IMG/VR virus record: IMGVR_UViG_3300027971_000004 | Location: 1 to 59,567 of that record | DNA: 59,567 nucleotides | Reading direction: 5' to 3' (one strand) | Source of the DNA: a virus | Lineage: Duplodnaviria; Caudoviricetes | Shown: piece by piece, positions 20,197 to 23,824 of the stretch | Numbering within the stretch: position 1 is the stretch's first letter | Layout of the letters: each line of letters begins with the position of its first letter | The notes under the pieces: generated by a model | Databases searched by the model: none | Seen by the model: only the letters and a program-made list of their open reading frames with translations | Told to the model about the DNA's origin: nothing | Program-made: the position numbers and the translations under genes

Positions 20197-20311
20197 CTCT
20201 CTTCTCCTCCTTGAGAAACTCGGTAGGGAACACATGCTCAACATCGAACTGATTCAGAATCGCATCGACCGTCTCATCCAAGAGAAAGTCAGGACGCTTG
20301 GGGGATTCCAT
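20009..20311 (-). CDS. Hypothetical protein
   Basis: GAGG RBS; overlaps the helicase end and the regulator start. Confidence 0.5.
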   Translation of the reverse strand: MESPKRPDFLLDETVDAILNQFDVEHVFPTEFLKEEKRDGFWKRWRDSIAACFGFRRRAAPPSADQSGVSDRSGGELGAGHPADQGGRPSAKELACQAKP

Positions 20312-21332
20312 GTCGCCTCTCCCACTCCCTACAGAACAGACCCTTCACCCATCCGCTGATGCTCGGTGCATCACATGCCCATCGGATGTAGTGATCTGGA
20401 AGCTGGCTCATCTTCAGCCCGCCGTACTTGCCCCGGAGAGGGTTCGTATACGTGCCGACCGGCCTCTTGCCCTTCCATGTAATGTCGATCTCTTGGCTGG
20501 CCACCCGGCCAAAGCCCCGGCCTTGCGTGTTCTTCCGCATGGCTTCGATGGCCTTGGCGGATGCGATCCGCTCGGCCTCCTTGGCGGCGATGTCAGCCAT
20601 CTCCTCGGCAGTCAGTGGCTTCTTGGATTCAGCAGCCGCCTTCTTGACTACCTTCTTCACTTCCTCGTCGGCGGCAGGGCAGAACATGTCCACGCTGGTG
20701 ACGAGCGAGTGGTCGATGCTGCCCGTGGTGCAGTCCACTATCTTGAAGTGCTTCTTCGCACTTGCGGAGACGGCAGCTCGTCGGCTATCTGGCGTACTGC
20801 CCTCAAAATCAACAACGCCCGGTAGCGGACGAGTGGCTCGTCCCACGCACTGCAGCCAGAAGGACCTTGAGCGGGTGGGCCTTCCCAGAATAAGGGTTGC
20901 TGTAGGGGGGTAATCGAAGCCAACGGCAACGACTTGGCAGTTGCACAGGACCTTGGCCTCGCCTGACTTAAACGCTCGGAGTGCCTCACGCCTCTCCTCC
21001 TCGGGCTGTGTGCCGTACACGTACACGGCAGGGATGCCGTAGTTGTTGTTGAGGTAGTGGGCCGCAGCCTTCGATGACGAGACAGATGCCGTGAAGAGGA
21101 CGGTCTGGCCCTCCATCTCCTCCGCCGTGATCAGGCACAGGCGTTGGATGTTGGATTCCTTATTCAACTCGGCCTGTAGGGCCTGCTGCTGGAAGTCACC
21201 GCCAACGATCTTGATGCCTGACAGGTCCAAGGATTCCACCCGTGCTAGTTTGCAGACGGGGGAAACAGCCCACCCGTATTCGATGGCCCACCGCAGGTCG
21301 TATCCGCCGACGAGTTCTTCGTAGAATTGCAT
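20289..21332 (-). CDS. SF2 helicase, C-terminal (RecA2/HELICc) half
   Basis: TVLFTAS, VLCNCQVVAVGFDYP, RPTRS...QCVGRATR (motif VI); AGGAG 6 nt before ATG. Confidence 0.9.
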   Translation of the reverse strand: MQFYEELVGGYDLRWAIEYGWAVSPVCKLARVESLDLSGIKIVGGDFQQQALQAELNKESNIQRLCLITAEEMEGQTVLFTASVSSSKAAAHYLNNNYGIPAVYVYGTQPEEERREALRAFKSGEAKVLCNCQVVAVGFDYPPTATLILGRPTRSRSFWLQCVGRATRPLPGVVDFEGSTPDSRRAAVSASAKKHFKIVDCTTGSIDHSLVTSVDMFCPAADEEVKKVVKKAAAESKKPLTAEEMADIAAKEAERIASAKAIEAMRKNTQGRGFGRVASQEIDITWKGKRPVGTYTNPLRGKYGGLKMSQLPDHYIRWACDAPSISGWVKGLFCREWERRHGIPQAS

Positions 21333-21835
21333 GCTTCACTCCTGAGCATTGGCTTGCCGTCCATCCGAAATGGCGTGGCTGTAAAGCCAGCGACCATTGC
21401 CCCCTTCGATTGGAAATGCGTGAGCATCTCCACCACCGCCTCACTGCACATCATGTGTGCTTCATCAACGATCACCAGTTGGAAATCATCGAACCTCTCG
21501 TAACGCTTCTGCCCGCCCCTCCGGGAAAGCAGCGTTTGCTTCGATGCCACCACCACCTTGGGCGAGAACCAGTCATCGGCACCCGCCCTGTACTCAGCCA
21601 TCTCAATGTCAGGGTCTTCCCCGAGGATGTCCCTGACCTTGTCCACTGCCTGCCACAGAAGTTCCTTGAGCGGGACGATGATGAGCGTGCGGCCCGGGAT
21701 TCGATTGGCCAGGCTGCAGAACACCACCGTCTTCCCCGCTCCCGTGAACATGGGGTTGAGCGTGGACTTCACTCCGCGTTCCATCGCGGCGATGTTGTCG
21801 CCCACCACTTGCTCTTGATAGTCACGTAGTTGCAT
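21245..21835 (-). CDS. SF2 helicase, N-terminal (DEAH ATPase) half
   Basis: LRDYQ, TGAGKT, IVDEAH, GFTATP. Confidence 0.92.
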   Translation of the reverse strand: MQLRDYQEQVVGDNIAAMERGVKSTLNPMFTGAGKTVVFCSLANRIPGRTLIIVPLKELLWQAVDKVRDILGEDPDIEMAEYRAGADDWFSPKVVVASKQTLLSRRGGQKRYERFDDFQLVIVDEAHMMCSEAVVEMLTHFQSKGAMVAGFTATPFRMDGKPMLRSEACNSTKNSSADTTCGGPSNTGGLFPPSAN

Positions 21836-21914: not shown

Positions 21915-22256
21915 TCACCTAAAGTCCGAGAACGATTCCTCCAAGGCCGGCTCTTCACGGCGCTTCCCGCCGCAGAGCTGCACCTTCATCACCTTGATGA
22001 TCTTCTTCGACTTCTTCTCGCCGTCCTTCTCCCAAGACTGCGTCTGAATCTCACCTTCCACCAGCACCTGAGTGCCGCGGACGAGGTACTCAACGACGCC
22101 ACCGGGCTTCCACATCTCGCAGTCGAAGTACTCAACCGAGTCCTTGTAGCCATTGACCGCGAGGCTGAACTTCGCAACCTCGTTCTCGCCGGCCATGCGA
22201 CTCTCGGCATCCTTGGTCAGATTGCCGAGACAGATGAAACGCTGGTAACCGCTCAT
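21915..22256 (-). CDS. ssb: Single-stranded DNA-binding protein
   Basis: GNLTKDAE, FSLAVN, GTQVLVEGEIQTQSWEKDG; acidic tail. Confidence 0.95.
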   Translation of the reverse strand: MSGYQRFICLGNLTKDAESRMAGENEVAKFSLAVNGYKDSVEYFDCEMWKPGGVVEYLVRGTQVLVEGEIQTQSWEKDGEKKSKKIIKVMKVQLCGGKRREEPALEESFSDFR

Positions 22257-22891
22257 GCTTGAACCTCCCAGACCTTCTTGAATTCGGCCTCAACCCTGTG
22301 GAACACTTCCGCAGGGACGGCCTTCTCCTTCGCACGGAGACGCACCATGTCTAGATGCTTCTTCGCGTGATCCTTACTCTCGGCCTCGTTGATCGCCTTG
22401 ATCGCACCCTGCTGGTAGGCAAGGCTCTTGGCGTCCACCTTCGGCTCTGACTTCTTCTGCGGCTGCTGCTCACCAAGGCTGTTGCCGTCATCGTCAGCCT
22501 CGCCACTGAACCCGCCGCACAGAGCCATCAGTAGCGTCCGCTTGGCGTAGGTCATCGCCGCCCCAAAGGACTGCATGTCGGTCTTTCCCATGAACAAAGG
22601 GGCGGCACCGCTGATCCACTGGCCTGACGAATGACGCAGGGTTCCAACGACGAGCCACTGACCACCAACAAGGCCGGGTCGGAAGTCAGGGAGACTCAGC
22701 CCGTTCTTGGTGAGCGGCCCGCGGAGCGAGTCGCAGCACTGTGCATATGAAGCAAACTTGCTTTTGAAGTGCGGGTTCGCACTGTCATAGGCAACGATGG
22801 GATACTCGGCCTGGGCCTTGGCAAGAGCCTTGGTCAACTCCGATGTCTCGGGCGAACAACTCGGCCCGAGGATGTTGTTGTCGTAATTCAT
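22253..22891 (-). CDS. erf: ERF-family ssDNA-annealing protein
   Basis: ALAKAQ, NPHFKSKFA, HSSGQW, QSFGAAMTYAKR, DDDGN. Confidence 0.92.
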   Translation of the reverse strand: MNYDNNILGPSCSPETSELTKALAKAQAEYPIVAYDSANPHFKSKFASYAQCCDSLRGPLTKNGLSLPDFRPGLVGGQWLVVGTLRHSSGQWISGAAPLFMGKTDMQSFGAAMTYAKRTLLMALCGGFSGEADDDGNSLGEQQPQKKSEPKVDAKSLAYQQGAIKAINEAESKDHAKKHLDMVRLRAKEKAVPAEVFHRVEAEFKKVWEVQA

Positions 22892-23739
22892 ACCTCTACG
22901 TACTCCTCTTCCTTCTTTGCCCACGCCGGGACAACGAGTTCCGTGATCTCGTTTGCGTCAGCGGGCATATACATGCCCGTGGAGCGGCGTAGACGAACCT
23001 CCTCCATGGTGTTGAGCATCCGGCGCCCGGCTGCCTCAACAAGTTCAACTGGCAGATAGAAGACCTTGCAGCCGTAGGGCGGCATGGTCTGCACAAAAAC
23101 GAATGGCATGCGGAAGTGCGGCAGGCCGATGGCCTTGGCAGACTCCACGTACAGCCACTCCTGCTCGTAGTAGCCGTAGTCCCTCGCACTGAAGAAGAGC
23201 TTCTCCCATGGCTGGGATGTGGTCTTGAGGTCCCACCACAACTCTGGGCAGCATGCGTCCGGGCGGGTCTTGAGCGGATGGCCGTCTATCTCAAAGAACA
23301 CTGAGACTTGCGTCTCGGTGGTCCGCTTCATCAGGTCATAGGCAGCGTCGTTGCCCAGCATTGAGCCGTGCATCTGCTTGTAGGCCCACAACTGATCAGG
23401 CGTGCAGATGATGGCCGTCTGCTGGGCAGCCCACTCCCTGTAGGCATTGGTCGTTCGGGAGCCACCCTTCCCAAGCACATCGTCCGGGGGGGTGACCACC
23501 ATGTCCTCAAACCGCTTGCCGCCGAGGATGCCGGTGATGATCTCGTCAAACTCAGACCCCTTGGAGGTCCCTGAGTTGCCACCGAAAAACGTCTTGCCCT
23601 GCTCCAGCCACAGCTGCACCTCGCCGCCGTGCTTGGCGACCGTGTGCAGGAAGGACCGTGAGTCGAAGTCCGACTCCATCCGGTACGCCTGATTGCTCAT
23701 GCCGATCACCTTGGTCGGCAGTTCTTTGATAGTGGTCAT
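22888..23739 (-). CDS. RecE/ExoVIII-like PD-(D/E)XK exonuclease
   Basis: KTRPD...DLKTT...YGYYEQ; adjacent to ERF; GGAGG RBS. Confidence 0.85.
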   Translation of the reverse strand: MTTIKELPTKVIGMSNQAYRMESDFDSRSFLHTVAKHGGEVQLWLEQGKTFFGGNSGTSKGSEFDEIITGILGGKRFEDMVVTPPDDVLGKGGSRTTNAYREWAAQQTAIICTPDQLWAYKQMHGSMLGNDAAYDLMKRTTETQVSVFFEIDGHPLKTRPDACCPELWWDLKTTSQPWEKLFFSARDYGYYEQEWLYVESAKAIGLPHFRMPFVFVQTMPPYGCKVFYLPVELVEAAGRRMLNTMEEVRLRRSTGMYMPADANEITELVVPAWAKKEEEYVEV

Positions 23740-23824
23740 CCGTACACCTCCAGAAAATGAAAGCCCCATCCGTGGGGCAGGGTCGATCCTTCAATCCCCG
23801 TCCTTGGGGCAGAACTCCTTGATC
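23737..23824 (-). promoter_or_regulatory. Leader with clustered ANGGA-loop hairpins (CsrA/RsmA-type sites)
   Basis: CCCC-AAGGAC-GGGG, TTGA-AGGA-TCGA, GCCCCA-CGGA-TGGGGC, plus ACGGATG over the start codon. Confidence 0.6.

Follow-up and report, generated by a model that had tools for sequence, protein, structure and literature searches.

The SF2 helicase of the phage genome analysed here is split into two adjacent ORFs. The split is conserved among relatives, both halves are under purifying selection, and the junction has the features of a ribosome binding site (RBS). We consider it about 85% probable that gene fission has given rise to a two-polypeptide RadD/XPB-like SF2 helicase, the second half of which is made from a normal Shine-Dalgarno (SD)-ATG, and we infer that the two halves are initiated separately, assemble and are active. 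The original prediction had put forward a translational bypass resembling that of T4 gene 60 and had named as its alternative an SF2 helicase genuinely composed of two subunits, with a separate RBS for the second half; it is this alternative that the comparative data support.

Layout and domains of the two helicase ORFs

The stretch of DNA studied, hereafter the window, is a complete virus record of 59,567 bp with direct terminal repeats and a G+C content of 59%. According to Pfam matches, the helicase halves belong to a PDDEXK nuclease/ERF/SSB/helicase/HTH module. The region directly upstream of the helicase (21915-23769, minus strand) is a compact phage recombination/replication module. It comprises, all on the minus strand, genes for a PDDEXK-like nuclease (22888-23769; Pfam DUF3799, 4.7e-6), an ERF recombinase (22253-22924; Pfam ERF, 5.4e-12) and an SSB (21915-22256; Pfam SSB, 6.2e-15). 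The ERF gene overlaps that of the nuclease by about 37 nt and that of the SSB by 4 nt.

The first helicase ORF (21835-21245, minus strand; 196 aa), here called the N ORF, encodes a ResIII/DEAD domain with motifs I-III (Pfam ResIII, 1.7e-22; DEAD, 1.3e-14). Its conserved part, residues 1-163 (21347..21835, minus strand), forms a RecA1 domain that ends in ...FRMDGKPM and contains Walker A (GAGKT), DEAH and TAT (motif III). In tblastn searches, homology to relatives stopped at residue 163, while the ORF itself runs 33 codons beyond Met163 in its own frame. The resulting out-of-frame tail (33 codons plus TAG; 21245..21346, minus strand), which overlaps the start of the second ORF over 88 nt (21245-21332), is probably not a functional protein.

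The second ORF, the C half (20289-21332, minus strand; 347 aa), lies in the -1 frame relative to the N ORF and starts with MQFYEEL. When initiated at the second ATG of the junction, its predicted first residues are (f)MQFYEELVGGYDLR. It encodes a RecA2 domain (Pfam Helicase_C, 6.3e-15) followed by a conserved C-terminal region of about 120 aa (20289-20640, minus strand). This region contains residues that are invariant across the alignment (G-T-Y-x-N-P-L-x-G-K ... L-P-x-x-Y-x-x-W) and has no Pfam match at E <= 0.01; judged by its sequence, it forms an uncharacterised domain that accompanies the helicases of this family.

When both halves were placed on PHROG 16 (DNA helicase), the N half covered profile positions 271-426 and the C half positions 436-654 (from about 426 on), so that the halves abut with nothing missing in between. 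With Walker A, DEAH and motif III in RecA1 and with RecA2 following, the SF2 signature is complete, its domains being spread over two ORFs. The helicase motifs are intact in the window and invariant in alignments of the relatives.

The closest solved relatives by sequence are E. coli RadD and archaeal XPBII. RadD (PDB 6jde) was matched by the N half at 7.6e-9 and by the C half at 5.3e-9, with N-half residues 3-159 aligning to RadD 5-157 and C-half residues 10-175 to RadD 184-350. As in RadD and XPB/XPBII, a ResIII-type RecA1 with a TAT motif III is followed by Helicase_C. Unlike the phage enzyme, those helicases are single polypeptides; identity to them is low (E about 1e-8 to 1e-9), and the C-terminal domain without a Pfam match is a further difference.

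In protein databases the C half appears in a shorter form. The entry for the same contig (P0003) has 316 aa and lacks the first 31 residues encoded after the SD and its ATG, apparently because gene callers avoid the 88-nt overlap. The C halves of many relatives are likewise shortened, to 303-334 aa.

Sequence of the junction

Read along the minus strand, the junction consists of CCA ATG, a spacer of 14 nt (CTCAGGAGTGAAGC) and ATG CAA TTC, exactly as had been described. The first ATG (21349-21347), the 'take-off' codon of the original prediction, is codon 163 and corresponds to a conserved position of the family, nothing unusual in itself, that holds Met or Leu. The peptide preceding it, TATPFRMDGKPM, is the conserved helicase motif III region; fused relatives have it as well, and no nascent-peptide signal of the gene 60 kind stands out from it. 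The spacer (21346-21333) carries the SD sequence AGGAG, located at 21343-21339 and hence at the predicted distance of 6 nt from the second ATG (21332-21330), the start codon of the C half. Removal of 17 nt joins residues 1-163 to the remaining 346 residues and gives the 509-aa helicase that had been proposed.

An SD at this place is not exceptional in this genome. In a crude ORF set, SD-like 4-mers precede 39 of the 78 ORFs of the window as compared with 47 of 748 internal ATGs, and SD sequences with comparable spacing are also present at other genes of the window. Relatives with a 14-nt spacer retain the purine-rich GGAG/GAGG core but differ at the remaining positions of the spacer.

The hairpin that had been seen in the insert is not supported by folding analysis. 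The 81-nt junction region folds at -18.7 kcal/mol, compared with a mean of -19.1 kcal/mol for shuffled sequences (z 0.15), and 107 of 200 shuffles fold equally well. An RNAalifold consensus of 18 relatives contained neither a base pair inside the spacer nor a downstream stem-loop, and an Rfam search at the junction gave no match. The duplicated ATGC around the insert is not conserved either: relatives have ATGA...ATGC, TTGC...ATGC or ATGC...ATGG.

Occurrence of the split in metagenomes and among relatives

The presence of the junction in independent material was checked with Logan contigs rather than raw reads. Contigs from runs of three independent studies bridge positions 21330-21349 with 0 gaps at approximately 96% identity (run X7, record 17; run X11, record 2; run X3, records 9 and 10), with no indel listed; run X5 yielded no contig bridging the junction. 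Of the earlier statement that a structured 17-nt insert is unlike a sequencing indel, the part concerning real DNA was thus borne out, and the part concerning structure was not. All sequencing runs in which near-identical sequence was detected are freshwater or lake metagenomes, and no RNA run is among those listed. Three relatives (L134, L135, L136) have been binned in metagenome-assembled genomes labelled Phycisphaerales, Pirellulaceae (Planctomycetota) and Rubrivivax; the phage host may be a freshwater planctomycete, with the reservation that binning of phage contigs is unreliable.

Relatives were inspected for the insert, as had been suggested. A search with the C half brought up 11 IMG/VR loci (64-97% identity), each of which has ATG-N14-ATG. 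In a larger set of 57 sequences, made up of the window and 56 loci from a profile scan and including some identical ones, 39 were split at the same codon and 18 were fused. Among the best 123 matches in protein databases, 98 corresponded to the C half only, mostly starting with M-x-[FY]-Y, and 25 were fused proteins of 500-516 aa. Distant homologues are overwhelmingly single-chain, and by far most of the 150 representative clusters that matched best have 500 or more residues. A tblastn search of cultured phages returned only distant fused helicases with less than 40% identity. Among the papers listed in literature searches, none was found to describe a split phage SF2 helicase such as this one.

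Junction variants

The following features were counted over the 39 split sequences. The spacer measures 14 nt in 28 of them; other lengths are 11, 5, 2, 19, 28 and about 16 nt (the last in L094), and four loci (L106, L109, L112, L133) have 472-490 nt between the halves. The C half starts with ATG in 34 cases and with GTG in five. The GTG start is unambiguous in L113, the sister of which, L110, has ATG; three of the five are GTG-ATG doublets, and the assignment of GTG in L094 is doubtful. Codon 163 is ATG in 31 split sequences, TTG in six and TTA in two, and it is ATG in all 18 fused loci. A codon in the N frame that matches the start codon is absent in five split sequences, namely L125-127 (TTG, then CTG or CTC) and L110/L113 (TTA CT). 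In L122 and L129 the halves overlap by ATGA, while L114 has TGATG and L092 TAG-T-ATG; all three are usual layouts of adjacent, separately translated genes.

In 17 of the 18 fused loci, exactly two residues separate Met163 from [FY]Y. An N half ending in Met163 and a C half starting with M1-x2-[FY]3-Y4 are therefore colinear with the fused proteins without any indel.

The four loci with a long interval carry an ORF of 150-155 aa between the halves (plus strand; 2034-2501 in L112 and 1619-2071 in L109), of which two versions, 45% identical, occur and for which a coiled coil is predicted. The ORF had no significant Pfam match and no match in PHROG, fell into one database cluster only, and had no further copy in the window or in the relatives' loci. 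It could encode an accessory subunit or have been carried in by an insertion at the place of the split. The idea of a homing endonuclease as the cause of the split was considered and dropped, the ORF between the halves having no recognisable family. For the same reason an origin of the split in a mobile element is speculation; by analogy with what has been reported for MobA and T4 gene 60, it is possible.

Evolution of the split

A DNA-verified tree was calculated with IQ-TREE (quick mode) from the C parts of the 57 sequences and four fused outgroups. On this tree a single clade (31 rows, SH-aLRT 92; one change) unites the loci that have a 14-nt spacer with those whose spacers are derived from it (11 nt and 2 nt), and the fused/split state changes three times. 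In a larger, protein-only tree nine fused/split changes were found, with three fused proteins (P0089, P0073 and P0029) nested in the big split clade. In that tree 'split' was derived from gene calls, some of them on contigs of barely gene length (e.g. P0100); we therefore rely on the DNA-verified tree and treat the nine changes as a lead and not as a count.

Two of the nested fused proteins have linkers longer than those of the usual fused forms, by five residues in P0089 and by four in P0073. These lengths are compatible with a re-fusion in which spacer-derived codons were retained, by gain of 1 nt or loss of 2 nt, respectively, in a 14-nt spacer, as far as can be read from the protein sequences. 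P0029 has a short linker, yet its N part is nearly identical to that of the split L080 type.

Selection on the halves and predicted pairing

In 13 pairs of relatives, dN/dS ranged from 0.03 to 0.23 for the N half and from 0.08 to 0.24 for the C half, values that identify both halves as being under purifying selection. The original prediction had named an insert private to this genome, with decayed halves, as the outcome that would speak against it; the opposite was found, the split being widespread and both halves maintained by selection.

The 33-aa tail of the N ORF was also considered as a case of dual coding, and this was rejected. In diverged pairs, dS of the C frame was 0.36-1.27 in the overlap and 0.39-1.47 in the next 100 codons; it is thus not clearly suppressed, and because of this similarity the tail does not qualify as a second coding layer. 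Its length is also variable, from 2 to 40 aa among split relatives.

Complex prediction for the N and C halves gave a score of 0.71 as opposed to 0.22 for the best control, and passed a mark attained in 58 of 80 solved complexes and in 2 of 110 mismatched pairs. The runs agreed in at least 88% of the contacts, and the pLDDT of the partner was at least 72. In the predicted complex, C-half residues 1-13 contact N-half residues 22-33 and 148-150, which would place the cut inside the RecA1 structural unit. Binding of the halves to each other is plausible on this modelling, although such a result is expected for the halves of any helicase and may stem from similarity to solved single-chain helicases.

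Alternative explanations

The first alternative, a hop, would have the peptidyl-tRNA-Met leave the ATG of codon 163, slide over 17 nt with the help of the internal SD and land on the second ATG, so that a fused 509-aa helicase is made as the exclusive or a minor product. This fusion would contain the junction peptide ...MDGKPMQFYEELVGGYDLR. The model is prompted by the arrangement in the window and in most of its clade, where two ATGs lie 17 nt apart with AGGAG or GGAG 5-8 nt before the second one. The N frame, moreover, has no stop for 33 codons, which leaves the N product with a seemingly useless tail. Matched codons and an SD within the gap are reported features of the gene 60 cassette, which in T4 has a coding gap of 50 nt and is associated with MobA. 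The window resembles that system in the location in a phage DNA-metabolism gene and in the short non-coding interruption, with identical flanking codons and an SD-like element close to the downstream codon. The SD in the gap, however, equally has the look of an ordinary RBS of this genome.

Most of what distinguishes a gene 60-like bypass is missing at this junction. There is neither a stop nor a conserved unusual codon after the supposed take-off site. The lack of a stop had been conceded as a caveat and holds: the next codon is CTC (Leu), replaced by CTA, CTT, CTG or ATG in relatives, and the N frame stays open. The stem-loop is neither significant nor conserved. The five split loci devoid of a matching N-frame codon have kept the split, and ATG occupies codon 163 just as regularly in fused loci, which points to a constraint on the protein and not to a take-off signal. 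The supposed landing codon is always an initiation codon, either ATG or GTG. The product of a hop would be one residue shorter than 17 of the 18 fused relatives, whereas the N and C halves laid side by side are colinear with them. Finally, relatives with ATGA or TGATG overlaps or with an intervening ORF could not use such a mechanism. Compared with gene 60 as reported, the phage junction departs from that system in the length of the gap (17 nt versus 50 nt), the lack of a stop or recognisable hungry codon after take-off, the missing take-off stem-loop, the non-conserved matched codon, the downstream codon that is always an initiator and the absence of a homing endonuclease nearby. A hop as the route to the helicase is thus very unlikely. 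We give the same small chance to a weaker form, in which some ribosomes of window-type lineages hop the 17 nt between the matched AUGs flanking the internal SD and produce a fused helicase besides the two halves. If this were true, a short-range programmed bypass would have evolved from an ordinary internal RBS.

A programmed -1 frameshift that fuses both frames, taking place within the spacer or immediately behind it with the SD-like AGGAG as stimulator, is slightly less probable still. Its appeal lies in the position of the C frame, which is -1 relative to the N frame throughout the window-type clade, and in the stimulation of -1 shifting by SD-like sequences reported for dnaX. The internal SD-like sequence and the -1 relation of two ORFs are common to dnaX and the phage junction, but the latter has no slippery heptamer and no downstream stem-loop, and its frame relation is variable among split relatives. 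In a scan reaching from 10 codons before codon 163 to the stop of the N ORF, an X XXY YYZ heptamer was absent in 22 of 24 window-type loci, and the two exceptions had no site in common. In 12 of the 39 split sequences, including the window, the C frame is closed by TGA or TAA one codon before the ATG, so that only about 6 nt are left in which a shift could take place. Other split lineages, with gaps of 19, 28 and 16 nt, have a +1 relation.

That the gene is a decaying pseudogene, or a sequencing or assembly artefact in which a frameshifted helicase has gone out of use, might be supposed because the insertion has a length of 3n+2 and nearly all distant homologues are made as one chain, but this is effectively excluded by the recurrence of the layout across dozens of independent assemblies, by its presence in contigs that come from three independent studies, by dN/dS of 0.03-0.24 over both halves, by intact helicase motifs and by conservation of the SD-ATG.

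A probable helicase of two polypeptides

Under the preferred reading, a gene fission with separate translation of the halves, the first polypeptide (about 22 kDa) would consist of RecA1 up to Met163 and a dispensable out-of-frame tail, and the second one (about 39 kDa) of RecA2 and the C-terminal domain. The C half would be initiated de novo at AGGAG-N6-ATG inside the end of the first ORF, and the two chains would assemble into a working helicase in which, according to the structure prediction, roughly the first 13 residues of the second chain pack against RecA1. The spacer of 14 nt would go back to an old insertion between motif III and RecA2 that broke the frame, supplied the RBS and became fixed. 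It would have arisen once in the clade of the window and have been remodelled later in relatives.

Two features of the window stand against this reading. In the window-type layout the N ORF does not end close to the junction but continues for 88 nt within the C half; coupled genes do not usually overlap in this manner, and the arrangement leaves room for some recoding. The window also does have matched ATGs 17 nt apart with an SD between them.

A comparable case is the large subunit of T4 topoisomerase, which consists of gp39 and gp60 and is encoded by a single gene in relatives. Here, too, the enzyme is single-chain in relatives and is encoded by two adjacent ORFs, each with a start of its own; the split is stable over long evolutionary distances, and fused and split forms exist within one family. 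In contrast to gp39/gp60, it is an SF2 helicase that is cut, after motif III, and the ORFs share 88 nt that they read in different frames. The site yielded no mobile endonuclease; all that was found there is an ORFan, and this in one lineage.

The analysis removes a candidate recoding signal, since the resemblance to gene 60 comes down to a conserved Met codon beside an ordinary RBS. It also has a practical side for annotation, as pipelines call such genes frameshifted or place the start of the second half too late. What is left, as we see it, is an SF2 helicase that was cut naturally behind motif III and has stayed so throughout a large clade of freshwater phages. Since fused forms, altered junctions and the insertion of one ORF are all met with at the same codon, this family would offer a system for studying how motor proteins tolerate cuts.
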